In this document: positions 5,970-29,208 of the stretch, one piece after another
Layout of the letters: every line of letters begins with the position of its first letter
How positions within the stretch are numbered: position 1 is the first letter of the stretch
Source: a virus
Reading direction: 5' to 3' (one strand)
Length of the DNA stretch: 64,000 nucleotides
IMG/VR virus record: IMGVR_UViG_3300031576_000016
Span: 29,579-93,578 of that record
Translations under genes and position numbers: made by a program
Notes under the pieces: generated by a model
Databases searched by the model: none
The model's input: the letters and a program-made list of their open reading frames with translations, nothing else
What the model was told of the DNA's origin: nothing

Positions 5970-6995
5970 ATGGCAAATAAGCGCATCTTCTATGCCGTGC
6001 AGCAAGCCGCCTTTACCAAGTGCGGCATCGAGGCGTATTCTTCGCCCGACGACAAGGCTGTTCACGGCCTTCAGAGCCTCGGCATCAACACCAAGTTCAA
6101 CCTTGAACAGGTGTTCGAGATTGGTCAGATTTCCATCTACCAAAACATCGAGAACATTCCGGACGTGGAAATCACGATGGAAAAGGTTCTCGACGGCTAC
6201 CCGCTGATTTACCACCTTGCCACGCACGGTGCGACGGTCCCGAGTCTCTCGGGTCGCGCAAACGTCAAGGCAACGGTTGGTCTGTCGATTTTCAACGACA
6301 CGCAGGACTCCGCGTCCGGCACCACGATTGCTCAATGCCAGATGTCTGGTGTGTACGTGAGTTCGCTCGCCTACAACATCCAGGTCCAGGGCAACGCGAC
6401 TGAGCAAGTCACCATCGTGGGCAACAACAAGGTGTGGAACAACGCCTTCACCACGACTTCCTTCGACAACGATGACGCGCCGCTCGCGACCGAAGGCGTC
6501 AACCGTCGTCAGCACATCAAGTTCGGTGCGTCTGACCCGGCCGGCCCGGTCAACAGTCACTTGCCGCAGGACATCCCGGGCATCACAAGCTCCGGCACGA
6601 ACGAACTGACCAACGGCGAGTTCGGTGCTCACGTTCAGAGCATCAAGGTTTCCGCAAACCTTGGCCGCGAACAACTGTTCGAGCTTGGCCGCAAGGGTCC
6701 GTTCCACCGCTACGTCAACTTCCCGGTCGAAGTTCGTTGCGACATCGAAGTCCTCAGCACGGCCGGCGACCAGGTCAGCGCTCTCGAAGAAGCGAGCAAC
6801 CTGACTGACCGCAAGATTTTCATCTGGATGACCGAAGGCACGAAGCTCGACCTCGGCACCAAGTCCAAGTTGGCCTCGGTCAACTACGGTGGTGCGAATG
6901 CTGGTCAGAACGGCGGCAACGCCACTGTGACCTACAGCTATGTGACCTTCAACGACCTTACTGTCACGCATCCCGAAGACCCGAGCGCGTTGTAA
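5970..6995 (+). CDS. Major tail tube protein (two tandem tube domains)
   Basis: 341 aa with highly biased codons. Internal repeat: GLQSLGINTKFNLEQVFEIG vs HVQSIKVSANLGREQLFELG. Upstream of the TMP and followed by a terminator. Confidence 0.8.
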   Translation: MANKRIFYAVQQAAFTKCGIEAYSSPDDKAVHGLQSLGINTKFNLEQVFEIGQISIYQNIENIPDVEITMEKVLDGYPLIYHLATHGATVPSLSGRANVKATVGLSIFNDTQDSASGTTIAQCQMSGVYVSSLAYNIQVQGNATEQVTIVGNNKVWNNAFTTTSFDNDDAPLATEGVNRRQHIKFGASDPAGPVNSHLPQDIPGITSSGTNELTNGEFGAHVQSIKVSANLGREQLFELGRKGPFHRYVNFPVEVRCDIEVLSTAGDQVSALEEASNLTDRKIFIWMTEGTKLDLGTKSKLASVNYGGANAGQNGGNATVTYSYVTFNDLTVTHPEDPSAL

Positions 6996-13300: not shown

Positions 13301-16300
13301 GCCTGGCGGCTGCTACACTCAGCAGGAAGGAAGTGTTGCAGCGTATCCCGGCCGGCTCCTCGATTGCTGGCATCGGTGCCTTCGGTGTGGCTATCAAGAC
13401 GCCCGATGGCGACGTGATTCGCGCTCAGGCCGACAAAGCACCGGACCTCGCAAACAAATACGCCGCTGAGATTGGACGCAAGCCGTTCAAGCCTTGGCAG
13501 TACGCAACCGCTCGCCCGCCTATTGATGAAGTGTTGCAGCCGACAGCCACGATGACTGTCAAGAAGGGTGAACGCTCAACGTTCATGGAGCGTCTGCCTT
13601 ATGTGACGCCGCTCACCGAGCTTCCTCACCATCAGCAGGAAGAAGCTCATGAGAAGGCCCAGGCAGAACTGTTGCCGTCGATGGCCAAAAAGGGCTGGAT
13701 GCTTACTGACAAGCACAAGGGCAACCTAGCGGTTGACAAGGCCGGCCGGTTCATCGCGCTTGACCCGGCGACTGCCAAAAAGATGAATGAGGACCAGCAG
13801 TCGCGGCTTCTCAGGATTCTCGCTTCAGACAAAGCGGTTGCTACTGGCCTGCCAGGGGCTCAGGTCGATGAGTCTACGATTCACGACCCGCGTCTGAGTG
13901 TTAGCCCGCCAAGTCCAACAGTGCAGACGCGCGGTCGTAAAAAGTTCGACATCGGCGGCGAAGCCGCTTTGCCGGAAGCAATGAAGTTGTTGCAACAACG
14001 CTTCCAGACTTTCGACGTGTCGCGTATTGCTGAGAACGTGACGTTTCACGACAAGATTCCATCGAAGACTTTCCCAGAGCGTGGCGCGATTGGTAAGTTT
14101 TATCCGGAGACGGATGAAATTGCCCTTTCTCGCCAGTTGAAGTCTCCGCGCCTTCTTGCAAAGACGCTGCTTCATGAATTCGTTCATAGGATTGATTACG
14201 ACGAGGGCACGCAAAAGCGGCATGGCTCTCGCGACAAAAAGTCTGTTCCCGGCAAGTTGGCTGCGCAGCTTCAGCCTGCATGGTCTGAAATGGCGATGCA
14301 GAGATATTTCAAGGGTAAGACCAAGGAACAGTTGACTCCGAAGGAACAAGAGTCGCTGGCATATCTGACGGCTCCACATGAAGTTCTTGCCTACATGGTC
14401 TCGGACGTGGCCACTCGGGACAAGGACCAGGTTCCTGAAGAACATGAAAAGGCTGTGCAGACACTGCTCAGGCGTCACCTACCGGCTCGGCAACCGCAGA
14501 AGTACGAACGTGGCGGATGGGTTGTCCCTGGCGAAGGCAACACTGACTCCTTTCCTGCTGACCTTGCTCAGGGTTCGTATGTCATCCGGAAGTCCTCGGT
14601 TCAAAAGCTCGGCGCGTCCAACATCCTGAAGATGGCAACCGGCGGCACTGTCCCGGCATTGCTCATGCCTGGCGAGGTTGTTATTCCGCCAGGTAAGGCT
14701 CGTCAAATCGGTCGTCACGCTCTGACCGAGATGAACCTTCACGGCCGTATGCCGTTCGCTCAGGGCGGCTTTGTGCGGATGGCAACTGGCGACCAGGTGC
14801 CGAAACAGGAGACTGTCAAGGTCGGCGCGCTACCTGAACGTTTTCAGGATGACGTTGAAAGGATGTTTCGTGGACTTGGTGCCAAGGTTCAGAAGCCACT
14901 GCATGAACTTGAAGTGGTCATTGAGCGGTTCGGCAAGAACATTGTCCGCGTTGTGAAGATTGTCGATGTGGCTGTCACTTCTACCGCGTTGCCAAAATCG
15001 GCAGCTTCTGCTGCTACGACTCCAGCAACCAAGCCACAAACAGTGCCTGCGCTGCAAATAGTCCGGGACCTGAAAGCTCACTTGATTGCTCAGGCTGAGG
15101 CGGGTGGTAAGTCTGGCAAGCTTTCTTCCGAGCAGGTTGAGAAGCGCAAGGCTCGCTATGACAAAATGCTCAGTGAGGAAAATCCAGAACGGTCGCTAGA
15201 AAAGTATGCCAAGTTTCAAACGAAGGCCCCGTCCTTCAGTGGTTACTTGGACAAGCGAGACCGCAAGCAAGCTGCCGAGGACCTGAAGAGCACCATCTAT
15301 ACGTCGTACCTGGAGACTGGCACGACTAGCAAATACAAGAGCGCCAAAACTCCCGAAGAACGTGGTCGCGTGTTAGCTACGGCTGTGCCAAAGTACATTC
15401 GTCAAAATCTTGCCGATTTTGAGGGTGGTACTGAGACTGGTCGCAGCTATGAGACTGCGAAGAAGACTCGTGGCCTAGAGAGTCAATATCAAAAGGCGCT
15501 GAGGACACAGTCGCCAGAAGAAGCTTTGAAGTCGGTTGTTTATCAGGCAACAGCAAAGCGCATCCAGTATGAAGAAAGCTCTCGTCAAAATAAGGGTAAA
15601 GCGCCACGAACCCAAAAAGAGCTTCAAGCTGCAATTGAGGAACGATACCAGACGCGCATGGGCAAGTATGATGCCCACGACTTTGAGGGGCCGGCTGCGG
15701 ATGTGGCTCGCGCAAAACTGTTCGGGCACAAAGACCATATCAAACGCGGTGCCGAGGAAGCTTCTGCACGTACCGGCAAAAGCGTTGACGAAACCAGGGT
15801 CGATAGTCTTGAAGCACTCCATAGTAGCCTTGGCGATAGTTCTCAGGCTGCGGCCATTTATCGTCAGCAACAAACCACCGGTCTCCAAAGCCAACTAAAG
15901 CGCGGTAAAATCAGCCAGGCTACTTTTGAAAAGCGAGTGGCCAAGCTCGATTCTCTAAGCGACGATAAGGCATCGAAACTATTACTGTATACCAGGGATG
16001 GTACGCTGCGCGAGAAGGTTGGCAAGCAGCTTGCTGCCGCCGGCATTACCGCCGGTAAGACTCCTCAAGAGACTCGGGAGAACATTGGTAAACGCCTCCA
16101 GGAAATGAAGGGAGAGTTGGAGGCTGCTAAGCCGACAACGGTTCCCGAAGTTGCCGGTCGCGGCCTCACGCCGGAAGAGAAGCGTAAGCGACTCGTTGAC
16201 CAAGAAGTTCGCGGTGCGACCCTAGAGTCCGACTTGACTCCAAGCAAAGCCGACTTGAAGGAGTTGCGCAAGGACCCGGCCTTTGTAAAACAAGAGAAGC

Positions 16301-19300
16301 AAGACGCTGCACCATCAGCCCCGGAGAAAGCCTGGACTCAGCCAGCAGCCGCCGCCCAGACTGTTGCCCTTCCTACTAAGGTGGACGCGGTCAAAAAGTC
16401 TGTGCCTCGACCGACCGATAGGCAGCAACTTGAACGTCGCCTGAACGAACTCGAAGGCGTGGATGTTCCTTCTGCGCACGAGATGAAGGAAATTGCCGAC
16501 ATCCATCGGCAGTTGAAGAATCAGAAGACACCGGTTCCGCCACAACAACAGACCGGACGTGGCCGCGTTCGCGATACGCTTGCTCCGAGTGACCTACGTG
16601 ACATCCAGGAACAGACAAAGGACCTGGTTGTGCCCGAGGCCGCGATTTCGTCTGCCTCCGATAAGCTCAAGGCAGGGCCTACCGCTCAGGTCGCACGACA
16701 AGAACGCGAAGCTCGCGATAAGAAGCCGTCGCCAATCATTTTGCCTGGTGACCAACCGGCTGGTCCGCCGCGTCCGCTCTTCATTCCTGGTCAGACACAG
16801 GCGCAGCCTGATGCAAAGGTTTTCACAAGCGAAGCTGACTTCCGCCGCAGTCAGCAACCTTCTGCCAAAATTGTTACTGGCGATGAGACTCCGGTTCCAT
16901 CGCTGGTTCAACCGACTCGGGAAGAAGTCAAAAAGTATGGTCGTTCTGCTGCTGGCCCGACTGCGGTTGCAGCAGCAGCTAAACAGCCTCGTGACATTCG
17001 TCGCATTATGGACAAGTTGGCCACTTCCGGTTTGGTTGAAGACTTGGAAGTGCCTGGTAAGGGTGCTGACCCACGAGCCAAGAAGGGGCTTCTTCGTTAT
17101 CTGAAGCAGTATGGCGAAGAGATTGAGAAGGCTGGCAAAGGCACTTTGTCGCGTCGTCTTCAGAAGCTTGCTCGCAAGGCACCAGATTGGCAACCAAGCT
17201 TGCGTGGTATTCTGCCAGCCCCAGAAGAGGACACTACCACGTTTTCGTTCGCTGAGGAAGCGGCTGCCGCCACAAAGTCCAAGCCTCGCCCAAGCAAGAA
17301 GACCAAGGAACTGGACTTGGCGGTTGGCTACAAAGAGCCAAAGGTTGAATTTACGTTCCCTGAAGAAAAAGCGCCGCTGCCGCTTGAAAGCGACGTGAAC
17401 CAAAAGTCGCGGCTGCGCCGTGAGCAGGAAGAGGAAGCCAAGAAGCGGCACAAGAACGCCGTGGATTTGGCATCGCAGCCAAGTCACAAATTGCAGGGGG
17501 ACGCGGCAACTGTCCCGGTCAGTCTGACAAAAGAAGAAATCATCAGTAAGACCGTTAGCGATTTTGCTCCTACGGGCGAACCGAAGGAGCCGGATGTGCC
17601 GGCAAGTCTATTTGATAAGGACAAGAAAAAGAAACAGACTTCTCGCCAAGAACATCTCAAAAAAGAGCGCCAGAGGTTCATCAAAGAAGAGGGCGTAACT
17701 GAAGAAGCGATTGCGTTTCGTGAGCGGATGCTTGACAGCACGAAGTCGCTGGATGAAGCTCGCAAGCTCATAGCCAGTCCCGAGTTTGATGGCCACGAGA
17801 AAATCAATCCTTATTTCGATGTCTACGCTCAAGAGCGTCATGGACAGAAGAAGAAAAGGAAGCCAAAGACTTGCGGCCTTGCTCCGGAACAAAGCTTCTT
17901 TGATAAGCCGACGCCGCAGCCGCGTCCGACCAGTTCGTTGCCGCCTCCTCCTTCGGGCAAGGTGCCTGAGACCTATAGTTTCGCTGGGGACCCGCCGGAG
18001 TCGAAACGGTATCACGTCGAAGGTGACCCTCTGCATCCAGCCCAACAACAGGGCGGTGAGCACCGCTCGCGCGACTTCTACCGCACGTTGTACAACAGCA
18101 CAACGGCTGGCGATACGCTTGGCTATACCAAGAAGACGCGCCGCGAACTCGCAAAAGCCAAGGATGCTCTTGACCAGGCTCGTCTCGATGCTGCCGCTGA
18201 CCCTACCGACGACAATCGGTTGCGTTTCAAAGAAGCTGGGCGGGCTTATGACAAGCTTGAGAAACAAAAGGTAGTCGTCGGCCGACGCGAAGCCGACCCG
18301 TACTACGCTCGTCGATTGCTCGACCAGGCGAAGTCGGAATTGTTGCCGCACGAATACAAGGCGTTCGAGGCAGAGACACGTCGCGTTCACCCGAACCTTG
18401 CTTCGCAGGGCGGCGACCCAACCATCTTGCGTCAGTACAAGGAAGGCAAGAGCGACGACGAAATTCGCGATAACCATTATGGACAAACTGGCAGACGAGT
18501 TGGTCTATTTGGTGGAGCCGCTATCGGTGGGGCTGTTGGCTCATTGTTTGGTCCACTCGGCACCGTTCTTGGCGGCACCATTGGCGCTGCTGTTGGTCAA
18601 AAAATCGCAAAAGCCCTGCCTGGGTCTGCGGCGTTTGAGGAATCATTAGCAGAGAAGGGGACGGGCAACGTCAGTGTCGGTCATATTGCTGAGTACAAAA
18701 CCGACAAGGAGACTGGCCAAAAGCGGCTTATTGGCGGTGACCTTCGCGAAAAAGGCCAAGCTGAACTAACCAAGTATCTGGCTGGTCGCGGTCCTGTCAG
18801 CGATGCAACAAAGCACGCCTTTGAAACTGAGGCCATCGGGCGGGCGGAAGCCCGCGTCAAACGCGAACTGATTTCCGCGCAGGAACGTTGGCTGAAAGCT
18901 GTTCATCCAAATATCTCTGCGACCGAAAAACACAAGTTGGCTCTTGAGCAAGTTGATGCTGCTCTTGCTGGGCAGGCAAAGGTTGTCAAGAGTTCAACAG
19001 GTCGCTATTTGGGCGTTGAAACAGAGCACACGAAGGCGAGCGACCTGGATAAGGCCACAGGCGCTGGTGGTGTTGGTTTCCAATTTCGCTCAGCTAAAGG
19101 TGCTATTGGCGACTGGATGGCCGATAAGTATCGTAGCTTGAAGGCTGGCTACGAAAAGTTCGAGTCGTCTAAAGCTGGTCAAGTGCTGAGTGGCGCGGGC
19201 AGCTTTTTGTCCAGTCAACCGGTTACGTTCTTGGCTCCGCTACTTGGAGGACAAATTGAACAATCGGCCGGCACCGCTGAAAATGCAGTCAAGGCTGGTG

Positions 19301-22300
19301 CTAGTGGTGAAGGCACATATACAACTCGTCGTGGAATTGGTGGCGCTGCAACGGGCGCGATTCTTGGCGCAACTGTCGGTTCTATTGCTGGTCCGATTGG
19401 TGCCGCAGTTGGTGGTGCAGCTGGCGCTCTGGTTGGATTCACAAGTGCTATCAAGGATGCTGCAAACGAAATTCGTGAAGTAAAAATTGGCAATGCGTTG
19501 ACCATTATTTCGGACCGTTTGACCACGATTGCCAATGTGCCAGTACGAACTTTGCCAGGTGGACAGGCTACTGCTGATGACCCATTGGTTCGTTCTTCGA
19601 TGGCTGACGTTCTGCGTGAACTCACTACTTCTCGCAATGAAACACTCGACAAAAACATTAGTGAATCTAGCGGCTTCTGGCGTAGTGCCGGAGCCGTGTT
19701 CGGCATCTCGAATCCGGTTGATGTTCAAGGTCTCGCCGCGCGTCAGGAATCTGCTGACCGCCAGCAGGTTTCTCAAATCCTGCCGCAGAGCACGCAAATC
19801 ATCAACCGTCAGGCCGAAGTGTTACTACGCAACAATCCGAACATTGGCGCTCGCGACGTTGCTCGACGCCTCAGCACTGAGGGTCTCACTGGCCAACTGA
19901 TTCCTCGCATTGCTCAGGCTCGCCGCGTACCACTAGAACAATACTTGGATGAGCTTGCTTTGCAGGTTGCCCAAGTCAATACTCGATTGCGTGCTGAGTT
20001 GGCGCAGCACCAGGCTCGCGAAGGCCAGGAGAAGGTTATTCATACCTTTGGCCGGCTCGTGCTGGCGGTCCAATCGGCCTCCGACAGCCTGGTCACTCTG
20101 CGGGCGCAGGCTCAGTCTATGTCGGATGTGTTCTATGGCAACGTCACGGCTACGCCGGTCACCGCTCATTCCGAAGCTCTAACTCAGCTGGGACGCCAGG
20201 ACCGTGGAGCCATTCGCCCGCTTGAAACCATCTCTCACGTCGTTGGCGATGAGCGCGGCAACCGTCTGCTTGAGCACGGCCGGGCAACTGACGATGTGGC
20301 TCGCGTTCTACCGGCTATCCTGGCTCGCGTTGGTTCGACCAACCCGCTTGAGCCGTCTGACTTCTCCCGCCAGGTGCGCGAACAACTTGTCAGCGCTTTC
20401 GGCGGTACGCCAACAGGCGGACAAAACGCCGCCATCAACACCGTTCTGTCTGAGATTCAACGTGTCGGGGCGACGGGCGGCACCGCGCAGATTTTGCGTG
20501 AGATGCAGATTGACGCGACCGAGTTCACGCAGAAGCTCATCAACCCGCTGGCTGACCCGTTGAAGAAATTTGGTCAACAAGTTGCCCAGGACCTGGAGAA
20601 GGCCGGCAAGGAGTTTACCGAGAACGTCAACGAGTTTGTTCGTCGCACTCGCGTGGCCGGCGAAAGCATGGACCGCCTGGCTGCACTCCGCGTCACCACG
20701 GCCCGGGTACGAGCCGAGGTTACGGCCCAGCAAAGCGGACGCCCGAATGATGTGCTCAGCCAACTCTCTCTGCAAACTCTTCAGAGCGGTTTGCAGTCTC
20801 GTCAAGAACGATTGACTGGCGTCGTCGGTCCGGCAGCGAGCAACCCAGACTTCATCGGTCGCCAGCTTCAGACTGTTCGCGCTCGTATCAACGAAGCGAC
20901 CCATCGCCAGCAGGAAACCTTTGAACTGACCGGCGGACGCGGGCCTGCTTATGAAGCAGCAGCGCTTCAGTTGGCTCGGTTGAAGGACCAAGCAGCCAAT
21001 TTGCAAAATGCTCTCAAGCACCTGGCTGACGTGTCCGAGAGGAACGCAGCTGCGCAGGAAAAGTTGGGGGCACTCAAACAAGAAGCTGATGCTCGCATTG
21101 GCCTCGGCGAACGCTACCTGCGTGCTGACGGCGAAGAGATGATGCGGCTCAATCGCGGCAGCCTCCTGGTCAACCAGGCATACAGCCGGCCGCAAGGTCA
21201 GCGCGGCCTGGACAACCTATCGGTTGAAGACCGTCGTCTCGCCCTGGATTGGGTCGGGGCTGCACGTGGCACACGTCTACAAGGCTTCCAAGGAAGCCCG
21301 CTGGCTGATGACGTTCATCGCACGCTCATTCAAGAGAGTGCTGGCGGTGCGTTCAACTTGACCGCTGGTCAACAGAACGAGATGCAAGAGTTGCAGCGTG
21401 TCCTATTGGCAAATGCAGCTACTGCGGAGCAGGCTCAGAACCAACTCATCACATTCCAGCGTGAGTCGGCTGGTGAGTTTTTCCAGAACCTAACTCAGCA
21501 ACACGAGCAGTTTTTCAGTCGTCTTGAACAGACGCTCGCACGCGACCGTCTCTTTGAACAACAAAATCGTTTGAATGAAGTGGCAACTCAGCAGGCTTCG
21601 CTTCAGGGTTTGAATACGAATCGCGAAACTCTGCAACGAGCCGGCGTCACCAACGATGACCAAGTTCGCAATTTGCGCAGCAATCGCGGCCTTGTTAGCG
21701 AATACATGGGTCGCGTAAGCGAAGTACAAGCTTTGCGCCAAAGGTCAAGTAATCCGAGTGGCGCTGCCGATATTTTCGAGCGCACTTATGGCGACCGTCT
21801 TGGTTCGCAATTCTCTGATGCTGGCGGATGGGGAATCAACATTGGGCAAATGGGCCTTAGTTCTGGTTCCATAGGTCGCCTAACCGAGAATGTGCGAAAC
21901 ACCACAGGGTTCACGCCTGAGCAAACTCAAAGGGTTATCTCTAGGTTCTTGCAGCGTTCTGAAAACATAACTGGCCAAACTGGTAGTGCCAACACCAGAA
22001 GTGCTGTTACTGCAAACATCGAGGAGGCTATTCGTCGCGAACAGGCTTTGCAGTCGCAGGAAGCGCAGCAACGCTTGGCACCACTAGAGAATAACCTTCG
22101 CGGACGCCAAATCAACGTTGGTGGTCTGTCGCAGGCTGCGGCAAGTGGCAACTCAAACGCTCTGCTCCAGGCTATCGACTCATTTGATGGCGTTTCCAAC
22201 TCCTTCACAACGCTGGATACGCGCATCCAGAATACCGCAGCGTCGTTCATCAATCTATCGAATAGTGTTCGCACGCTTCAGACGCGCGTTGACAATAACA

Positions 22301-25300
22301 ACCCTAACGCTGGCGGCAATCCTTTCCGTTTTGCAACCGGCGGCACGGTTCCAAATGAACCAAGTCGCGTCTATCGGTCCTATGGCACTGACTCTGTGCC
22401 AGCCATGCTCACCCCTGGCGAGTTCGTGGTTCGGGCCGAAGCTGCGAGTGCCAACCGTGGACTTCTCGAAGCCATCAACCGCTCGAAGGGCGGTAGCGTC
22501 CAATACCACCAACGTGGTGGAGTCGCTTATCTGGCTGATGGTGGTTACGCAGATGATGAGCCGTGGGAAGTCAACGCTTACAACTCGCTGTACCGTCGCC
22601 GAAGCATGATTGGAGCCGGCGTTCTGGCTACCGGTGCTGCTTATCGTTATCGTAGTCAACTTGGCTCTGCTTGGCGAAACACCCTTGGTCGCGTTCCGGG
22701 TTTGAGATGGACAGCCGGGGGAACTCCAGCAGCGGCAGCGGCTCCTACTACTACCGCTTCGCCGCCAACTCCGGTAGTGGAGCCTATGCCAGCATCCGTT
22801 CCGGCCACGCAGCCTCGTCAGGGGCTCCTTGGTCGCGTTCGCGGGTGGTTCGGCGGGACAGCCCCAGCACCTGTTCCTTCTCCTGCTAATACCGGAGCCG
22901 GCTATTTCACGGCACCGGCCGACAATGTCGCGGCTGAGCTTGTTCCATCGCCTGCCCCTGCCGCTCCAGTAGACCCGGCTACCGCTCATACTGAACGTCT
23001 TAGTCGTCTGACTCCAGAAGCTCGTGCTCGCTACCAACGCATTATGGCGACCGAGCCAATCTCGCGTGCTGACGCTTTGGCAAGAGCAGAAGCGTACAAC
23101 CAACGCATTTTGGGTGCTCAGACACGAGGCGCAGAACGTGCTGCTGCTTACGGCCAACAGCAATCGAACTACGGCGCTGCACAACCACGCAATGCTCCGA
23201 CGCAACCTGTGGCCAATGAGCCGCCAGGCTCAAATACGTGGTCGCGTCCAAATCGCGTTATTCCTCGTCCTTCCCCGACCGCCGCTACCACTTCGTCCCC
23301 AGCGGCAGCACCAGGCGCAACCCCAGCGCCTGTTGTTGAGGCTCCTGCTCCGGCTGCGGCTCCCCGCGCAACCGGAGCAGCCTCTACTCGCGTCACGCCA
23401 ACAACCGCAACCGAGCCAGACATCTATCGCTTGGCTCTCCAGGAGACGGCTGGCACACCACGTACTGGCCCAACCATTCGTCAGCTTCAAGCGACGAACG
23501 GAGCGGCTCAGGCTCCTCGTCCGCCTGTTCCGCAGGCAGCAGCGGCAACGCCAACACCAGTTGCACCCGTTCGCACACAGGTGACCGCTGGCCAAGGCAT
23601 GGTAATCACGCTTGGCGCGAGCTTGGCCTGGAACCACCTGGCTCAGCAAGCCGGCTTCAATCAGAATGTCACCGACGCCGGCAACCTTGGCATTCTTGGC
23701 GGCGGCGTGGCATTGTCTACTCCGACCGTTGCTGGTGCTGGTCTGTCAGCAACCGTGGCTGCACCTGCGGCCATCATCGCTGCACCAGTGGCTGGTGTCA
23801 TGGCCGGCAACATCATCGGTCGCAACGAAGACGCGACATCGCTGTTGACGACTGTCGTTCGTAATACGCCGACACCGCTGGCTGTCGCATACCGTGCGGC
23901 CGGCATCGACGAGGATGTGGCTCGCCGAGGCAGTCGCGAATATCAACGCATCTCTTCCAATGTTCACCAGGCACTGACAGTTCCTGGTGGTGATTGGGGA
24001 CAACGCACTGCTGACGCAACTGCAAGCTGGGGTGAAAATGTGCCGGTAGCCGGACACATTGCTTCAGGTGTTGCGACATTTGGTGCTAACACAGGACGTG
24101 TGGTCACCGATGTTGTCACTGGCGTTGGTGCTGAATTGGCAACGCCGGTTGTCAACACGCTGGATGCTGGTGGTTCCTACATTCGTGCCAGCCAACAAGC
24201 GGCCTACACTGATGCTCGCGCAGCGTTCCAGCCATACTTCAGCAAGTATCTGGATGCCATCGAAGCTCGCCAAGATGAGCAGTTGAATGCGGCTGGCGCT
24301 TTGATTCCTTCGCTGAAGAGCGAAGTTGACGCCGCCATCGCTCAGACAGAATACCGCTCAGCGGTGCCGGAAGCTTCTCGCTCGTCGTTCTCCGCGCGTC
24401 TTGGTCGCATCTCGATTGGTAAGCCAACAGAGACCAGCCCAAACATCCTGAGCTTCATCGAAGACACATATGGTCAGGGTCACCTATGGAAGACAAATAA
24501 TGGTGTTCACCTACAAGATGTGATGCGGCAGCATGGCAGTCGCGTCGGCATGGGCGATGATGAAGGCGTTCGTATCGACTTCCAGAACCGCGCGAGTGAG
24601 AATCCGCGAGTCGGACGCGAAGCGATTTTCGCCAAGCTCCGTCAGCGCATCACTCAGCCTCTGGATGGAGCCGAAGGCCCGCGTCCTCGATTCGCTGTCA
24701 TGGACCGTTTGCGTGACGCTTACACTCCGGGCGACAACAACATCCGCACAATGATTGACCGGCTCCGTGGCGAAAGTGCTACCGAGCAAACAGTCCAGAC
24801 GGACCGTCACACGACATTGCTGACACAGGCGACTCAGTTGGACAATGACGAGCAACGCGCGGCATTGTTTGAACAGCCGACTCGGTTGCAGCAGCTACGC
24901 GAAAGTCTCCGGGCTCGTCGCGAAGTAGTGGCGGCTTTGGCAAACATGCCCGCCGACTACCGCAACTTGATGACATGGTACACCACTGGTTCGCCGCCGT
25001 GGATGCAACGCATTCGTCAGTACCAGCAGGCAGCAGTTCTGGCTGGTCTCGACATCGAACGCGACCAAATGCTGACGCCTATCGGCTACGCAGCAGACCG
25101 GTTCTCGAACGAACAGCGCGAACTCATCACCAATGTTCGCCGTGGTCAGATTGCTGAAATTCGCCGTCGTCAGAATGTGGATGCTCGGCTCGCCAATGGC
25201 GACACGCTCACGGCCATCTTGAATGAGGTGCCGGCTGGGTGGAAGTCCATCTACGAACAGTCGATTCGCGAAACAGGCGGCAGCAATGCCGCAGAGACTG

Positions 25301-28300
25301 CTCACCTGACCGAGACAATGGGCGGCGTGGCCGGCGTCTATACTCGCGTTATTGGCGGCAACTTCGAGGGCAACAACTCGGCAGGCCAGCTTGCTTCGGC
25401 CGCGCGTTTGATTCCGGATGATTTCCTACGTGCTCAGCTTTTGCCTGGTGGTCTTGAAGCCGACAACGCATTGTTCTCCTACCGGTCGAGTGACCTTCAG
25501 GATGCGATTGGGGCCGTTCGTCAACGACAGCTTCGCTTGCTACAAGAGGCCGGCGAAATCAATGCGGTTGGCGATGTGCCTCGTCAGCTTCGCAACGAAG
25601 GTGTCATCCCAGGCTTCGCTCCGCTCTCGTCCATTGCTCGTCAGTATCTGACTCCGCAGGCCCTGCCGCTTGATGCGTTCTTGGCCCAGGCCGGCAATTC
25701 GGAAGTGTCGCGTCGGTTCCGTCTGCGTGACGCTAACAACATCAAGCGTGAGAATCGCTCGTTCATGGCGATGCGACTCGACACGGCAGAAATCGCTGCT
25801 GCTCTGAATCCGCAGGCCGCGCCAGCCCCAGCCCCGAATGCAAACGTTCAACTCGCACGCGGCGGCATGGTCTATCTCGCCCAGGGCGGTATGCCTTCGC
25901 CGCTGTTCCAGCCGAGGGGCACGGACACCATCCCGGCAATGTTGTCGAAGGGCGAATTCGTCGTCAACGCAGAAGCAACCAAGCAGCACCTGCCGCTTTT
26001 GGTGCAAATCAACGAGGGTCGTCGCCCATCCTACCGCGAAGACGGCGGGGCTGTTGGTGGAGCTATGTCGGCTGTCGCTGCGACTGCTTCTACGGCCCCA
26101 TCCTCCCCTTCTCTGCTCAGTTCCGGAAACGAAGGCGACACCTATAACTTGGCCTCGATGCCGAGCAATGAACGCTTCTTGCTGACACAGACATTGTCTA
26201 CTCTTGGCAAGCACCAGGTCGGCTCGATTCAAGACGCTGACGCTCGTCTGACGGGTCTCGAACAACGTTCGTCGAGCACCGCAGCCACTCAAGACAACCT
26301 GGCCGACGACCGCATCATTTTCGCGAAACTCGTGGCCGACAACATCGACGCCGGTCACCGCAATGCCGACGTGTTGGTCCGGTCGCAAACTAACCTTCAG
26401 AAACGGTTCTTCCTCCACTTGGGCGGCTCCCAGGACAAGTTCCTTGACAAGTTCGGCATGTCGCTCACTCTGGCTCCGAAGCTCGCGGCCAATGCCGCTC
26501 GCGCGGGTGACACGAACAATGTCTCGATGAAGCTCTTCCGCACCGGCGGCGTCGTTCAGTATTACGCAACCGGTGGTGAAACCAGCATGTTCCAGCCGCG
26601 CGGTTCGGACACAGTTCCGGCCATGTTGAGCCATGGCGAGTTCATCGTCAATGCGGCCTCGACTCGGCACAACCTGGGTCTGTTGCGAAAAATCAACAAC
26701 ACCAAGGGTCCGGTCTATTATGCACGCGGGGGCCTGGTGGGTCCGGCCTACTTCTCTGAGGGTGGTCAGGCAGAACAACCGCAACCGCCGCCGATGCCGG
26801 CCACGCCGTCCGAGCCGATTTACATCGACGAGGCAGGCCCGACTGTGGCTCAGCAGAATGCCGCAGCCGGCATTCAGGAATCTGGCGGCGAAGTTCCACA
26901 AGCCAGCAATGCTGCGGCTACGGCTCCAACTCCTGAGCTTCCGAGTCAGACGCCGTTTGGCGAAGACCCAGACCGCCCAGCAGCGGCCATGTTCCGGTTC
27001 GCGGCCGGAGGGTTCGTCCGTCCACGTTACTTGGCCCAGGGCGGACTTGTCAGCTACTTCGATGGCGGTGGACCTGTGCCGGCTCCGGCCCCAGCGGAAA
27101 GCCCTGAGCAACAACAGACCTTCCAACGATGGCGAGATTACCTGGCTGAGCCGGCGAATCAAACGCCGCCTCAAATCCAGATGTTGGAAGGGTGGTTCAA
27201 TCGCGGCTTCGGTGCCAATGGTTGGGACCGCGCGGCATTGCGTGCTCGCCTGGCCCGAGACGGCAATCGTCTATCTCCACGTTGGCGAGGTTTCTTCCAG
27301 GCATGGTCTGGATGGGTCGGTCGTCAAAACACCGAGCGCGATGCAGCCGCACAAGCTCGTCTGGAAACATTCCGTCGTACCTTGGTGCCGACTGTCGGCG
27401 GCGCGCCAGCCGCGCCTCTGCCGCCCGAACAGGCAGAAGCTCGTTACCAGGCCGAGTATCGTCGTCTCCGCGACATCTGGACTCGTGGCGGCAATCCACT
27501 TCAGGGCAATCTCGAAGGCGACGACGTTGAGGCGTCGGTCAATCAGGAAACAACTGCGGCCATCGCTGCCGGTCGTGCGAATTTCCAGTTCCTCAGTCCG
27601 GAACAGCGTGCTCGCTATCGCATCCTTCGTGAAATGCAAGGTGCCCAGGTTCGCCAGCGCACGGCTCGCGGACAGGCCCTGACGTTCACCGGCGGTCCAA
27701 CAGCTGACAACGCGCAAGGACGCGCTCTTGGCGAAGGCATTACAGGTCAGCAGGCATTCGCAGCGGCTCCTGGCGCTGTGGCCGAAGAGAACCTGTCTCC
27801 GACCGAGCAGGCTGTCCTTGAGGAAGAATATCGCTTCGCGGCTCAGGACCGTTTCAATCGTGAGACCCAAGGTCTGACGACTCTCGAACAGTTGACGCAA
27901 TACTGGCAGCCGCGCGAAGGACAGTCGAGCCCAGCATTCCGCCAGGCGTTCCGCGCGAACTCCAGTCGATACACGCCTCAGCAACGGGCAGAGATTCAGG
28001 CTCAATGGGACTTCTACGACGCCTACCTCGCACGCCGGCCGGCTCTCGAAGCGGCTCAACAGCAAGCGCGCGAACAGCAACGTCAGCAGGAAGCACAGCG
28101 TCAGCGTGAGGCTCAGGAACGCGAGACCGCCAACCAGCGCGTGCAAACGTTCCGCGACCAGCAGGCCGCGCTCGACCAGGAAATTCAGTTCCAGGCTGCC
28201 GTCAATCCGAATGGCGGCTCGGCGAACTTCCTACGTGAACGTCAAGCCGGCGAGCAGTTCAACCAGAACATGCAGCGTTTCAACGCTCGTTGGGGCGAAC

Positions 28301-29208
28301 TCGAAAATCGTGACCGCAACGGCCGCGAAGAACGCGAATGGAATCGGATGCAGGCCCAATGGCGTCAAGTCGAACGCCAGGGTGGTGAAGATGGGGCACG
28401 TCGCTTGTTCGTGGCCCAGAACGCGGCTCAGGCCCATCAGGGCGCGGCCATCCAGAACTTGCAGCGCCGGCAGTTCATTGCCAACGCTCAGCAGCCGTTC
28501 CAGGCATTCGGCTTCTCCCGGCCTGGCATCGAAGGTCAGCGTCAGGCGGATGTCGCCGTGCTCGCCCAGCGTCAAAACTGGAACCAGCAGGTGCTCCTCC
28601 AGGACTTCAACGCTCGCCGGTTGCTTGGACAGCAGCCCGGCTTCCCGGTGCCGGCACGTGCCTTCGCTGAGGGCGGCGTCGTTCCTGGCAGCGGCGTCCA
28701 CGACACTGTGCCTTCCCTGCTCACTCCAGGTGAGTACGTCCTGAATCGCCACGCTGTCCAGCGGATTGGTGTTGGCAACCTCCACAGCATGAACCATTTC
28801 GCAAATGGCGGCTTGGTGGGCGGCGTGAACTACCTGGCCGGCGGCGGACAGGCCACAGGGTCTGGTGTGGGCATCAATCCGGAAGTCGCTCAGGCGTTCA
28901 GTCGCTTCGGTGACACCGTGGTTCAGATGGGCGGCGGCTTCAACGTCTTCAACGCAAGTGTGCAGCAGTTGACCAGTGCGTTTAGTATCTTCGGGGAACG
29001 TTCGTCCAAACTCACCGACGCCCTGAACAACTTCCCGGGCACGCTCAATATCCAAGGACATCAAACGGTGGAACTCATTCTCAACGGAGCCGAAGTTCTC
29101 GCAAGTATGCAAGGGGACTTGCAGGCTCTGGTCCAGGACGCAGTCAAGACGGTCGTTCGCGAACGCCTTGGCGGTATCCTCTCTGATGCCGGCGTGCAAC
29201 TGGAGTAA
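10333..29208 (+). CDS. Giant tail tape measure protein (6291 aa) with embedded cargo domains
   Basis: TP901-type TMP core at about 10650-11550 (DFNRTMVKIAQV...LANAALVFKQAG...AVESRDLIEAVRKSG...IATGMRTIFTRI), glycine zippers, repeated GG..TD[ST]VPAML.PGEF modules, and position between chaperone and tail-tip genes. Confidence 0.9.
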   Translation: MADFNIVARLQIQLQAGSAAAAVQQLQQQLRNANLSLAFGLQPQALGGLNNLNQGLRATQAAASATSSSLRSTTQVINDGSTAIERFGAQAGLAARRFIAFTVGASTIVKVAQAFREGIAAGIDFNRTMVKIAQVGGDTKGQLAELASEVTRLSTTWGISSKELANAALVFKQAGLSAQEVKGHLETLALTDLAPNFESMAQTAEGQIAIWRQFGTNVDQTREALGAANAVAGGFAVESRDLIEAVRKSGGAFKAAGGSFNEFISLFTAVRSTTRESAAEIATGMRTIFTRIQRPQTVESLRELGVNLRYTADEAKNLGRADLENQFVGPYEAVSRLNEALRDIPTTDPRFLQVIEQLGGYRQVSRVLPMILQFSEAQKALNVAQTGSLSLTAAAEKSQESLGRRLSQVNEEFLGFMRSIVESKGFQSFVRFSLDLASALIKVLDVARPLIPVITTLAAVRIAQNFGQTAGGFLSHFIGTAPGSFTPKKVEPGVRFAKGGYVPGSGATDSVAAHVMPGEHVTKKDSTQSVDRRYPGFLTAMNQGGDIGVENYFRHRFADGGEARQGFGFGDTVKSLLANSVLGLGLLTGVDSGDAYEVAKQRSGEQVEHVQKSLQEDEKKKRQIKQAFGGETPRQRFGFGDSVKKWLSTGILAAGSLVGGHGLDDQVSVGQQEKRDRIENVKESLEEELRRKNKKKPQKLGKGGTPDLVAADGSMVLPLIEKHFDDVKQDDRGRYVTKQNNRDVFFEYMPKINALKIDFLQDGIGDFKHTNKSLQKGTLSFLRNLQGVAKSAGQKVFGIVAAGSEQKRSKIYKEGLEKLGFVADDTWSEYYKKAAFGGEMRLAKGGDDIFSKLPKYPKEDESELPPQYGNPINEFIQKKTGLSKKEITAAALAGSVAANGLLAATSMWIPGSQPVATGITALGIAGVKKLLKKRRGFAGGLDVMPDGQHESLRNLYDQVKEYAETRFSAHAGSPESDQKKSKATIAHIRRLAAATLSRKEVLQRIPAGSSIAGIGAFGVAIKTPDGDVIRAQADKAPDLANKYAAEIGRKPFKPWQYATARPPIDEVLQPTATMTVKKGERSTFMERLPYVTPLTELPHHQQEEAHEKAQAELLPSMAKKGWMLTDKHKGNLAVDKAGRFIALDPATAKKMNEDQQSRLLRILASDKAVATGLPGAQVDESTIHDPRLSVSPPSPTVQTRGRKKFDIGGEAALPEAMKLLQQRFQTFDVSRIAENVTFHDKIPSKTFPERGAIGKFYPETDEIALSRQLKSPRLLAKTLLHEFVHRIDYDEGTQKRHGSRDKKSVPGKLAAQLQPAWSEMAMQRYFKGKTKEQLTPKEQESLAYLTAPHEVLAYMVSDVATRDKDQVPEEHEKAVQTLLRRHLPARQPQKYERGGWVVPGEGNTDSFPADLAQGSYVIRKSSVQKLGASNILKMATGGTVPALLMPGEVVIPPGKARQIGRHALTEMNLHGRMPFAQGGFVRMATGDQVPKQETVKVGALPERFQDDVERMFRGLGAKVQKPLHELEVVIERFGKNIVRVVKIVDVAVTSTALPKSAASAATTPATKPQTVPALQIVRDLKAHLIAQAEAGGKSGKLSSEQVEKRKARYDKMLSEENPERSLEKYAKFQTKAPSFSGYLDKRDRKQAAEDLKSTIYTSYLETGTTSKYKSAKTPEERGRVLATAVPKYIRQNLADFEGGTETGRSYETAKKTRGLESQYQKALRTQSPEEALKSVVYQATAKRIQYEESSRQNKGKAPRTQKELQAAIEERYQTRMGKYDAHDFEGPAADVARAKLFGHKDHIKRGAEEASARTGKSVDETRVDSLEALHSSLGDSSQAAAIYRQQQTTGLQSQLKRGKISQATFEKRVAKLDSLSDDKASKLLLYTRDGTLREKVGKQLAAAGITAGKTPQETRENIGKRLQEMKGELEAAKPTTVPEVAGRGLTPEEKRKRLVDQEVRGATLESDLTPSKADLKELRKDPAFVKQEKQDAAPSAPEKAWTQPAAAAQTVALPTKVDAVKKSVPRPTDRQQLERRLNELEGVDVPSAHEMKEIADIHRQLKNQKTPVPPQQQTGRGRVRDTLAPSDLRDIQEQTKDLVVPEAAISSASDKLKAGPTAQVARQEREARDKKPSPIILPGDQPAGPPRPLFIPGQTQAQPDAKVFTSEADFRRSQQPSAKIVTGDETPVPSLVQPTREEVKKYGRSAAGPTAVAAAAKQPRDIRRIMDKLATSGLVEDLEVPGKGADPRAKKGLLRYLKQYGEEIEKAGKGTLSRRLQKLARKAPDWQPSLRGILPAPEEDTTTFSFAEEAAAATKSKPRPSKKTKELDLAVGYKEPKVEFTFPEEKAPLPLESDVNQKSRLRREQEEEAKKRHKNAVDLASQPSHKLQGDAATVPVSLTKEEIISKTVSDFAPTGEPKEPDVPASLFDKDKKKKQTSRQEHLKKERQRFIKEEGVTEEAIAFRERMLDSTKSLDEARKLIASPEFDGHEKINPYFDVYAQERHGQKKKRKPKTCGLAPEQSFFDKPTPQPRPTSSLPPPPSGKVPETYSFAGDPPESKRYHVEGDPLHPAQQQGGEHRSRDFYRTLYNSTTAGDTLGYTKKTRRELAKAKDALDQARLDAAADPTDDNRLRFKEAGRAYDKLEKQKVVVGRREADPYYARRLLDQAKSELLPHEYKAFEAETRRVHPNLASQGGDPTILRQYKEGKSDDEIRDNHYGQTGRRVGLFGGAAIGGAVGSLFGPLGTVLGGTIGAAVGQKIAKALPGSAAFEESLAEKGTGNVSVGHIAEYKTDKETGQKRLIGGDLREKGQAELTKYLAGRGPVSDATKHAFETEAIGRAEARVKRELISAQERWLKAVHPNISATEKHKLALEQVDAALAGQAKVVKSSTGRYLGVETEHTKASDLDKATGAGGVGFQFRSAKGAIGDWMADKYRSLKAGYEKFESSKAGQVLSGAGSFLSSQPVTFLAPLLGGQIEQSAGTAENAVKAGASGEGTYTTRRGIGGAATGAILGATVGSIAGPIGAAVGGAAGALVGFTSAIKDAANEIREVKIGNALTIISDRLTTIANVPVRTLPGGQATADDPLVRSSMADVLRELTTSRNETLDKNISESSGFWRSAGAVFGISNPVDVQGLAARQESADRQQVSQILPQSTQIINRQAEVLLRNNPNIGARDVARRLSTEGLTGQLIPRIAQARRVPLEQYLDELALQVAQVNTRLRAELAQHQAREGQEKVIHTFGRLVLAVQSASDSLVTLRAQAQSMSDVFYGNVTATPVTAHSEALTQLGRQDRGAIRPLETISHVVGDERGNRLLEHGRATDDVARVLPAILARVGSTNPLEPSDFSRQVREQLVSAFGGTPTGGQNAAINTVLSEIQRVGATGGTAQILREMQIDATEFTQKLINPLADPLKKFGQQVAQDLEKAGKEFTENVNEFVRRTRVAGESMDRLAALRVTTARVRAEVTAQQSGRPNDVLSQLSLQTLQSGLQSRQERLTGVVGPAASNPDFIGRQLQTVRARINEATHRQQETFELTGGRGPAYEAAALQLARLKDQAANLQNALKHLADVSERNAAAQEKLGALKQEADARIGLGERYLRADGEEMMRLNRGSLLVNQAYSRPQGQRGLDNLSVEDRRLALDWVGAARGTRLQGFQGSPLADDVHRTLIQESAGGAFNLTAGQQNEMQELQRVLLANAATAEQAQNQLITFQRESAGEFFQNLTQQHEQFFSRLEQTLARDRLFEQQNRLNEVATQQASLQGLNTNRETLQRAGVTNDDQVRNLRSNRGLVSEYMGRVSEVQALRQRSSNPSGAADIFERTYGDRLGSQFSDAGGWGINIGQMGLSSGSIGRLTENVRNTTGFTPEQTQRVISRFLQRSENITGQTGSANTRSAVTANIEEAIRREQALQSQEAQQRLAPLENNLRGRQINVGGLSQAAASGNSNALLQAIDSFDGVSNSFTTLDTRIQNTAASFINLSNSVRTLQTRVDNNNPNAGGNPFRFATGGTVPNEPSRVYRSYGTDSVPAMLTPGEFVVRAEAASANRGLLEAINRSKGGSVQYHQRGGVAYLADGGYADDEPWEVNAYNSLYRRRSMIGAGVLATGAAYRYRSQLGSAWRNTLGRVPGLRWTAGGTPAAAAAPTTTASPPTPVVEPMPASVPATQPRQGLLGRVRGWFGGTAPAPVPSPANTGAGYFTAPADNVAAELVPSPAPAAPVDPATAHTERLSRLTPEARARYQRIMATEPISRADALARAEAYNQRILGAQTRGAERAAAYGQQQSNYGAAQPRNAPTQPVANEPPGSNTWSRPNRVIPRPSPTAATTSSPAAAPGATPAPVVEAPAPAAAPRATGAASTRVTPTTATEPDIYRLALQETAGTPRTGPTIRQLQATNGAAQAPRPPVPQAAAATPTPVAPVRTQVTAGQGMVITLGASLAWNHLAQQAGFNQNVTDAGNLGILGGGVALSTPTVAGAGLSATVAAPAAIIAAPVAGVMAGNIIGRNEDATSLLTTVVRNTPTPLAVAYRAAGIDEDVARRGSREYQRISSNVHQALTVPGGDWGQRTADATASWGENVPVAGHIASGVATFGANTGRVVTDVVTGVGAELATPVVNTLDAGGSYIRASQQAAYTDARAAFQPYFSKYLDAIEARQDEQLNAAGALIPSLKSEVDAAIAQTEYRSAVPEASRSSFSARLGRISIGKPTETSPNILSFIEDTYGQGHLWKTNNGVHLQDVMRQHGSRVGMGDDEGVRIDFQNRASENPRVGREAIFAKLRQRITQPLDGAEGPRPRFAVMDRLRDAYTPGDNNIRTMIDRLRGESATEQTVQTDRHTTLLTQATQLDNDEQRAALFEQPTRLQQLRESLRARREVVAALANMPADYRNLMTWYTTGSPPWMQRIRQYQQAAVLAGLDIERDQMLTPIGYAADRFSNEQRELITNVRRGQIAEIRRRQNVDARLANGDTLTAILNEVPAGWKSIYEQSIRETGGSNAAETAHLTETMGGVAGVYTRVIGGNFEGNNSAGQLASAARLIPDDFLRAQLLPGGLEADNALFSYRSSDLQDAIGAVRQRQLRLLQEAGEINAVGDVPRQLRNEGVIPGFAPLSSIARQYLTPQALPLDAFLAQAGNSEVSRRFRLRDANNIKRENRSFMAMRLDTAEIAAALNPQAAPAPAPNANVQLARGGMVYLAQGGMPSPLFQPRGTDTIPAMLSKGEFVVNAEATKQHLPLLVQINEGRRPSYREDGGAVGGAMSAVAATASTAPSSPSLLSSGNEGDTYNLASMPSNERFLLTQTLSTLGKHQVGSIQDADARLTGLEQRSSSTAATQDNLADDRIIFAKLVADNIDAGHRNADVLVRSQTNLQKRFFLHLGGSQDKFLDKFGMSLTLAPKLAANAARAGDTNNVSMKLFRTGGVVQYYATGGETSMFQPRGSDTVPAMLSHGEFIVNAASTRHNLGLLRKINNTKGPVYYARGGLVGPAYFSEGGQAEQPQPPPMPATPSEPIYIDEAGPTVAQQNAAAGIQESGGEVPQASNAAATAPTPELPSQTPFGEDPDRPAAAMFRFAAGGFVRPRYLAQGGLVSYFDGGGPVPAPAPAESPEQQQTFQRWRDYLAEPANQTPPQIQMLEGWFNRGFGANGWDRAALRARLARDGNRLSPRWRGFFQAWSGWVGRQNTERDAAAQARLETFRRTLVPTVGGAPAAPLPPEQAEARYQAEYRRLRDIWTRGGNPLQGNLEGDDVEASVNQETTAAIAAGRANFQFLSPEQRARYRILREMQGAQVRQRTARGQALTFTGGPTADNAQGRALGEGITGQQAFAAAPGAVAEENLSPTEQAVLEEEYRFAAQDRFNRETQGLTTLEQLTQYWQPREGQSSPAFRQAFRANSSRYTPQQRAEIQAQWDFYDAYLARRPALEAAQQQAREQQRQQEAQRQREAQERETANQRVQTFRDQQAALDQEIQFQAAVNPNGGSANFLRERQAGEQFNQNMQRFNARWGELENRDRNGREEREWNRMQAQWRQVERQGGEDGARRLFVAQNAAQAHQGAAIQNLQRRQFIANAQQPFQAFGFSRPGIEGQRQADVAVLAQRQNWNQQVLLQDFNARRLLGQQPGFPVPARAFAEGGVVPGSGVHDTVPSLLTPGEYVLNRHAVQRIGVGNLHSMNHFANGGLVGGVNYLAGGGQATGSGVGINPEVAQAFSRFGDTVVQMGGGFNVFNASVQQLTSAFSIFGERSSKLTDALNNFPGTLNIQGHQTVELILNGAEVLASMQGDLQALVQDAVKTVVRERLGGILSDAGVQLE
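13153..13944 (+). other. Protein-kinase-like domain inside the TMP
   Basis: GIGAFGVA Gly-rich loop, MERLP hinge, TDKHKGN catalytic loop (DxHxGN), IALDP metal-binding Asp. Confidence 0.7.
13960..14502 (+). other. Zincin-like metallopeptidase domain inside the TMP
   Basis: GKFYP..DEIAL...TLLHEFVHRID (HExxH) with downstream YL..PHEVLA as third-ligand helix. Confidence 0.75.

Follow-up and report, generated by a model that had tools for sequence, protein, structure and literature searches.

Why should one part of a phage protein have been stripped of a single amino acid? The question arises from a stretch of viral DNA 64,000 nucleotides long (the window; positions 29,579 to 93,578 of IMG/VR virus record IMGVR_UViG_3300031576_000016), which forms the right-hand end of one phage contig of 93,578 bp, and it concerns the gene there for a giant tape measure protein (TMP) of 6,291 amino acids (aa). 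A preliminary description, made from the letters alone, had reported three very long runs without lysine towards the C-terminus of this protein, with arginine abundant in all of them, and the translation reproduces these runs exactly, to the coordinate:

21079..22485, + strand: lysine desert 1, aa 3583-4051; 469 aa with 48 arginines (from the translation).
22489..24243, + strand: lysine desert 2, aa 4053-4637; 585 aa with 44 arginines, including a linker rich in Pro/Ala/Thr and, at about aa 4440-4500, a hydrophobic segment rich in Gly/Ala (from the translation).
26707..29007, + strand: lysine desert 3, aa 5459-6225; 767 aa with 76 arginines, about 130 aa of it predicted to be disordered and proline-rich, followed by predicted long Gln/Arg/Glu-rich helices and the last copy of a repeated motif at aa 6113-6147 (from the translation and a structure model).

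Between them the deserts hold 168 arginines in 1,821 aa and about as many acidic residues (aspartate plus glutamate), which makes them electrically neutral, and the complete absence of lysine extends over three kinds of sequence: a disordered Pro/Ala/Thr-rich linker, long helices and a conserved core. The middle part of the same protein, described beforehand as very rich in lysine over positions 12000-19200, contributes about 240 lysines upstream of a conserved glycine zipper and consists of 9.9% lysine and 6.7% arginine over aa 561-3000, whereas the rear part, aa 3047-6291, consists of 1.0% lysine and 9.1% arginine. The fall starts where the preliminary description had placed it, at the second of two glycine-zipper-like segments (aa 3001-3046; nucleotides 19333-19470). 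Neighbouring genes do use lysine normally, as had also been claimed: their products contain 1.6-9.5% of it, and the proteome without the TMP stands at 4.4% lysine and 7.0% arginine, lysine thus making up 0.39 of lysine plus arginine, K/(K+R).

Lysine-free runs of this size exceed chance. When the longest stretch lacking each of the 20 residues in the TMP is set against its expectation, lysine reaches 6.3 times the expected length and the other 19 residues all stay at or below 2.0 times; and among 20,000 random placements using the lysine frequency of the C-terminal part itself (33 lysines in 3,242 aa), not one gave a third-longest gap of 469 aa or more. The 33 lysines remaining behind the zipper are clumped in conserved islands (aa 3401-3582, 4638-4768 and 5138-5458) and in the C-terminal domain, and the conservation of retained lysine columns among relatives is higher after the zipper than before it (mean 0.29 versus 0.12). 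By the length criterion of Szulc 2023 and Kampmeyer 2023, at least 150 aa without lysine, the TMP contains seven deserts of 166 to 767 aa; by the relative criterion, under which a desert covers at least 50% of the protein, it falls short, the longest run taking up 12% and the three main runs 29% of its length.

Base composition is not the cause of the purge. That GC content alone does not explain the deserts had been asserted from the outset, and GC content at third codon positions (GC3), codons in the other reading frames, expectations from base frequencies and a regression across genes all agree on it. GC3 is 0.54, 0.48 and 0.64 in deserts 1 to 3 versus 0.57 in the lysine-rich part, and the higher overall GC of the deserts stems from codon positions 1 and 2 and so reflects their amino-acid content. 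The triplets AAA and AAG are common in both other frames of the desert DNA, which rules out their avoidance at the DNA level, and 451 of the 1,821 desert codons lie one mutational step from a lysine codon. If the base frequencies at each codon position are taken from the deserts themselves, where the lack of lysine codons has already biased them, 13.7, 8.6 and 14.7 lysines are predicted, with probabilities of finding none of 9.5e-7, 1.7e-4 and 3.6e-7; a length expected from local composition, the outcome that would have undone the preliminary description, is thus not what we see, as about 37 lysines are predicted and 0 observed. Across 224 long open reading frames (ORFs) from related loci, with GC3 from 0.12 to 0.97, K/(K+R) declines with GC3, and the regression predicts 0.48 for the TMP gene; the rear module shows 0.10 (z -4.1) and the deserts 0 (z about -5). 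Relatives encoded on contigs of 69-76% GC have 1.0-1.4% lysine and lysine-free runs of at most 330 aa. The loss neither tracks GC3 nor affects neighbouring sequence alike, as depletion driven by GC would; the purge concerns the protein sequence and singles out lysine.

The place of the deserts within the protein becomes clearer from the layout of the gene and its other features:

10333..29208 (translated 10333-29205), + strand: the TMP gene, an uninterrupted frame of 6,291 aa (ORF list; PF10145 with E 2e-23; PHROG TMP families), which is P0001 in the protein collection.
10780..11412, + strand: PhageMin_Tail domain (Pfam), aa 150-360, within a conserved N-terminal part of 560 aa with 3.2% lysine and 35-55% identity across the family.
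12013..19332, + strand: Lys/Glu-rich, fast-evolving middle part, aa 561-3000, with 9.9% lysine, 1.5% asparagine and a net charge of +77 (from composition).
18502..18603, + strand: first glycine-zipper-like hydrophobic segment, aa 2724-2757, beyond which lysine remains normal (from the sequence and the lysine profile).
19333..19470, + strand: second, family-conserved glycine zipper, aa 3001-3046, the boundary at which lysine falls tenfold (weak Pfam match, invariant residues and lysine profile).
19480..22557, + strand: conserved post-zipper core, aa 3050-4075, which contains desert 1 and has 1.3% lysine versus 4-9% in most relatives (homologous in 48 relatives).
22384..22488, + strand: copy of the repeated motif GTD(S/T)VPAMLxPGEFVV..., ending in the lone lysine, aa 4052, between deserts 1 and 2 (sequence, cross-matches and invariant columns).
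25744..26706, + strand: lysine-bearing island, aa 5138-5458, with 14 lysines, flanked by motif copies at aa 5196-5230 and 5423-5457 (eight of the lysines conserved in the relative P0020).
28930..29205, + strand: conserved C-terminal domain, aa 6200-6291, with two lysines, 6226 and 6272 (the column of lysine 6272 holds lysine in 7 of 17 relatives too).

Membership of the TMP family is well founded: the PhageMin_Tail domain (PF10145) scores 83.7 bits against a gathering cut-off of 33.2, matches to PHROG TMP families reach E values down to 9e-22, and the gene has the position expected of a TMP, being the longest ORF of the 93.6-kb contig and co-oriented with a T4-type terminase upstream and with large tail genes downstream; a sugar-nucleotide/glycosyltransferase block lies downstream as well. 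The Pfam Gly-zipper_YMGG match at aa 3000-3035 is weak (E 0.0014, below the cut-off); the residues G3012, G3016, P3021, G3023, G3027 and G3035 of this zipper are invariant in 18 relatives. Compared with the sister protein P0039, the region from the N-terminal domain to the zipper is roughly double the length (about 2,400 versus 1,200 aa), and that from the core to the last motif about eight times the length (about 2,040 versus 250 aa). Desert 1 lies within the conserved core, and deserts 2 and 3 lie within the expanded region, which can be aligned to P0020 alone; for desert 2, alignment failed with every relative. A single-sequence AlphaFold model of aa 5459-6291, of low confidence (predicted local distance difference test score 45), suggests about 130 disordered residues followed by long helices (aa 5590-6100), as would be expected of a TMP.

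Some further properties of the protein deserve mention. The repeated motif, (F/Y)AxGG...D(T/S)VPAxLxPGE(F/Y)V, is about 50 aa long and occurs in at least six copies (near aa 500-520, 1400-1455, 4018-4052, 5196-5230, 5423-5457 and 6113-6147); it is the most conserved element of the family, is present in prophage TMPs of Nostoc and Comamonadaceae, and in our TMP brackets the lysine-bearing islands. At the usual 0.15 nm per residue, the 6,291 aa would predict a tail of about 0.9 micrometres if the entire chain measures length. The whole protein contains a single cysteine. A search of the TMP against itself with BLAST for internal repeats returned the self-hit alone, and no tandem repeats were found at the DNA level in its gene.

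How far, then, is the trait shared? The TMP belongs to a family of giant proteins of about 2,300-7,900 aa, with 4,773 matches at E <=1e-3 in libraries of 5.8 billion and 1.8 billion proteins, which have in common the N-terminal 520-560 aa (35-55% identity), the roughly 50-aa repeated motif, a glycine zipper with invariant glycines, a post-zipper core of about 1,000 aa and a C-terminal domain of about 200 aa. Among the 205 members of at least 1,800 aa that we surveyed, the longest lysine-free run has a median of about 126 aa and reaches 400 aa or more in nine: P0092 (1,359 aa), P0149 (1,286 aa), P0079 (796 aa), P0001 (767 aa), P0163, P0184 (472 aa), P0182, P0036 and P0090. The other outcome named in advance as fatal, that such runs might be common in unrelated TMPs, was checked within the family, where they are not general. 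Some 130 additional relatives found in IMG/VR and JGI metagenomes, all AT-rich and many of them from TARA marine samples, contain no lysine-free run longer than 369 aa. The run of that length belongs to a TMP with 5.4% lysine on a contig of 44% GC (L216; JGI/ENA contig MDSZ01050014.1), and might represent an incomplete desert in a lineage beyond the GC-richer clade.

When the zipper was mapped in each protein and the lysine content downstream of it was compared with that upstream, the ratio among 80 members was at most 0.27 in seven, near 0.4 in two and 0.5-1.3 in the rest; in an enlarged set, it was at most 0.42 in 10 of 103. As a low ratio recurs among the mapped members, the zipper boundary is common to several TMPs. 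The replacement of lysine by arginine, which the preliminary description had proposed to look for, is borne out: at 17 post-zipper columns that usually hold lysine in relatives, arginine stands in 10 in P0092 and in eight in P0090, and 166 aligned pairs have lysine in a homologue and arginine in our TMP, including pairs in the conserved core that holds desert 1. Relative to the rest of the family, the post-zipper parts of the desert group differ by -4.3 percentage points in lysine, +2.5 in arginine, -1.5 in glutamate and -1.1 in aspartate; the exchange of lysine for arginine with fewer acidic residues is a charge-conserving replacement. P0001 pairs with P0039, and P0079 with P0078/P0121, in the tree of the N-terminal domain and in that of the post-zipper core alike; the two trees thus agree and show no evident swapping of modules. 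One clade of 21-26 rows, richer in arginine overall, takes in most desert TMPs, each of them next to sisters with normal lysine; the backbone is too poorly resolved for origins to be counted, and its starred branches force one change only.

Other compositional features of the family were noted alongside. Members that are AT-rich and lysine-rich, P0019, P0084 and P0006 among them, have arginine-free runs of up to 342 aa, about three times the expectation and far milder than the lysine deserts. P0184, a TMP of 3,432 aa with its lysine-free run of 472 aa, carries a precomputed ADP-ribosyltransferase exotoxin domain (PF03496). Within our TMP, lysine and asparagine are inversely related in windows of 150 aa (r -0.72), asparagine making up 1.5% of the lysine-rich part (12013-19332) and 5.4% of the part behind the zipper (19471-29205). 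This relation had suggested avoidance of Lys-Asn cross-links, an idea that we dropped since the post-zipper rise in asparagine and glutamine is family-wide and not peculiar to desert TMPs; it is probably a property of the module, unlinked to the lysine purge.

The closest relative, P0020, allows a look at how the deserts behave over time. It is a fragment of 1,016 aa with 51-55% identity over two aligned blocks (57% by library search), and it keeps eight lysines of the island at aa 5138-5458. Opposite desert 3, it presents 352 aa free of lysine, including a stretch too diverged for alignment. The contrast implies that, although both are subject to one mutational regime, lysine comes and goes as usual in the island and remains missing from the adjoining desert, and to judge from this pair, the desert appears to be maintained over time by selection.

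What could make lysine undesirable in just this part of the protein? In long-tailed phages, the C-terminus of the TMP sits at the tail tip and exits first, and TMPs are thought to form or seed a channel through the envelope. Because the C-terminus exits first, we read the post-zipper module as the part that would be pushed into the host envelope, that is, into periplasm, cell wall or membrane; the zipper would insert into a membrane, and the lysine-rich middle would stay in the tube or follow toward the cytoplasm. TMP glycine zippers and channel formation have been discussed before (PMC10240207). On this footing we tentatively favour a host lysine-directed covalent hazard that acts on the exposed rear module, with selection there against lysine side chains, an explanation to which we would give somewhat less than an even chance. 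From the zipper (aa 3001-3046) to the C-terminus of this giant modular TMP, selection would have purged lysine wherever it was not structurally fixed, arginine taking its place and a smaller number of acidic residues balancing the charge. The epsilon-amino group of lysine would serve as a handle for covalent chemistry of the host, and arginine would preserve the charge but offer no nucleophile; the hazard might consist of transpeptidases that cross-link the protein to peptidoglycan, of a system for conjugation or tagging, or of a lysine-specific protease. Lysine is absent from linker, helix and core alike and arginine is kept, so a liability of the side chain fits better than a folding preference. 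The preliminary description had offered, as one of its alternatives, that this part of the TMP faces a different compartment after ejection, and the suggestion agrees with how abruptly lysine falls at a conserved membrane-type segment, a boundary that recurs in ten members. In its broad form, a widespread and unrecognised lysine-directed hazard of bacterial envelopes (transpeptidase capture, or a tagging or proteolytic defence of the envelope), which some phages escape by purging the ejected polypeptide, the idea strikes us as rather doubtful.

Several observations weigh against a hazard in the host envelope. Both the hazard and the compartment are candidates, and the topology assumed, with the C-terminus leading and the zipper lodged in the membrane, is carried over from siphophage TMPs in general and would hold for this one by analogy. 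Other tail and virion genes of the phage are not depleted of lysine, and an envelope hazard must spare or miss them. The desert trait is found in about 5-10% of the family, most relatives managing with normal lysine, and the trees are also compatible with a single origin followed by reversions. The comparison with P0020, finally, involves the sole close relative and small counts, 12 lysine-involving columns in the island and four in the desert.

Among the rival explanations, a purely physical preference for arginine over lysine would need no hazard in the host: guanidinium contacts could favour the self-association of helical bundles, interaction with membranes or phosphate, or sliding in the tail tube. 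Arginine does go up as lysine goes down (the +2.5 points versus family controls), the module is modelled as mostly long helices and disordered linkers, arginine-rich and lysine-rich sequences are known to behave differently in assemblies (PMC13696103), and a boundary at a membrane-type segment suggests distinct physical roles on either side. A preference of this kind would, however, give a bias and not 0 of 1,821 residues across three unlike types of sequence; at least 90% of homologous modules work with 5-9% lysine in the same conserved core, and the neutral deserts are unlike arginine-rich membrane-crossing peptides. We therefore rate it as unlikely, and as less likely still the main inference of the preliminary description, escape from lysine-directed tagging in the cytoplasm, by Pup or UBact with a proteasome or by Bil-type conjugation, to which the rear module would be exposed while virions assemble or once it has been ejected. 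Escape from lysine-linked tagging by way of lysine deserts has been documented, and such deserts are reported to be enriched in the proteomes of Mycobacterium phages (PMC10665810; PMC13696103); the Bil system attaches a ubiquitin-like protein to a protein of the phage tail (bioRxiv 10.1101/2023.09.04.556158), and the total absence of the acceptor residue suits a conjugation hazard. Yet Bil, as published, targets the central tail fibre and not the TMP (bioRxiv 10.1101/2023.09.04.556158), roughly 240 lysines of the same polypeptide precede the zipper, and lysine is normal in the other virion proteins, the putative tube among them. The published enrichment in Mycobacterium phages lacks a correction for GC, and confounding by GC is acknowledged there. 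Mycobacterium species have pupylation and proteasome machinery (PMC13696103), but in our comparison with known TMPs (a control set of three genes) the TMPs of two phages, TM4 and L5, show no depletion: TM4 gp17 has 6.3% lysine and K/(K+R) 0.62, L5 gp26 5.1% and 0.70, at GC3 of 0.84-0.89. The candidate fibre gene of our phage (30685-36222, + strand) is only mildly poor in lysine, and its C-terminal half is poor in arginine too. In the tail protein of 1,845 aa that it encodes after the TMP, aa 1087-1741 hold two lysines and nine arginines in 655 aa, and the protein has five lysine-free runs of 169-242 aa; a weak match of this protein to E1_FCCH fell below the cut-off and was disregarded.

Two further explanations were weighed. 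Secreted proteins of alkaliphiles have less lysine, more arginine and fewer acidic residues, for at high pH lysine, unlike arginine, is no longer charged; if the module works beyond the cytoplasmic membrane of an alkaliphilic host, the shift seen in the TMP might be a similar adaptation. Its resemblance to the signature of secreted enzymes speaks for this, and the metagenome from which the DNA probably comes is from a cave, a kind of habitat that can be carbonate-buffered. All extracytoplasmic proteins would then be expected to share the shift; the virion proteins facing the same water are normal in lysine, with K/(K+R) of 0.37-0.74 in the structural module, no lower than in the early genes, and the rise in asparagine and glutamine behind the zipper belongs to the family as a whole and is not specific to the deserts. 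Alkaline adaptation is thus very improbable. At least as improbable, and by now largely refuted, is a neutral legacy, by which the module would have come from a very GC-rich phage or grown by low-complexity expansion without lysine, and lysine has not yet drifted back. Deserts 2 and 3 do lie in lineage-specific insertions that are partly of low complexity (Pro/Ala/Thr-rich and Gln/Arg-rich), and the higher arginine content of the desert clade suggests GC-richer genomes. Against this, GC3 of the deserts equals that of the rest of the gene, DNA tandem repeats are lacking, and desert 1 sits in the conserved core with arginine where relatives have lysine. The concordant N-terminal and core trees give no sign of a module swap, and even the relatives at 69-76% GC stop at lysine-free runs of 330 aa. 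Moreover, a quarter of the desert codons are one step from lysine and none has become it, and the part too diverged to align is lysine-free in both the TMP and P0020.

Comparison with known systems helps to define what is unusual here. The lysine deserts of Szulc et al. 2023 (PMC10665810; reviewed in PMC13696103) resemble those of the TMP in being long lysine-free regions with arginine kept, residual lysines clustered elsewhere and, in part, a phage origin. They differ in that the TMP runs extend over 469-767 aa against a criterion of 150 aa, occur solely in one module of a single virion protein, in a phage of intermediate GC that is otherwise normal in lysine, and are bounded by a membrane-type segment; no tagging system is known for the host. 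In the A chains of AB toxins (London & Luongo 1989, as cited in PMC13696103), the part that crosses the membrane is likewise poor in lysine and rich in arginine and the other part normal in lysine. The accepted reason for the toxins is escape from ubiquitin-dependent degradation in eukaryotes, whereas the target of the TMP is bacterial and no equivalent pathway is identified there. TMPs of the TP901/PhageMin_Tail type (PF10145; zippers noted in PMC10240207) share with ours the N-terminal PF10145 domain, a glycine zipper, long helices, repeated C-terminal motifs and a position ahead of the distal tail genes; at 6,291 aa, ours is among the longest, and its tenfold contrast in lysine across the zipper is absent in at least 90% of the family.

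Searches for relatives outside the family and for a host yielded little. In the annotated phage collection, megablast found nothing, and tblastn returned only short motif matches or the SPbeta N-terminal domain; a scan of viral contigs with desert 3 alone gave no match, and an ESM Atlas search with aa 4500-5170 no usable one. PHROG and Pfam scans of neighbouring and other lysine-poor genes were almost all blank, with no lysis or exported protein recognised, and no transfer RNA genes were found on the contig. Relatives matched in genome collections lie on contigs whose bins are assigned to many unrelated phyla, and indicate no host. A search of sequencing runs found this DNA in a single run, a cave metagenome, which is probably the source sample. 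The same TMP is recorded in a protein collection on a contig of 194,118 bp, and the 93,578-bp contig runs to its end; the phage genome may be about twice as large.

For tape measures in general, the lysine-rich TMPs of the two mycobacteriophages caution against taking the published connection of phage lysine deserts with pupylation for granted. Almost nothing is known of what becomes of these proteins after ejection, and a lysine switch at a conserved membrane segment, recurrent in several lineages, offers a marker, readable from sequence, of two differently exposed parts of the TMP. Should a host activity indeed target lysine, it would amount to a new kind of interaction between the bacterial envelope and an incoming phage protein; and were the hazard widespread, the zipper boundary would provide a natural topology map of the compartments through which the tape measure passes.

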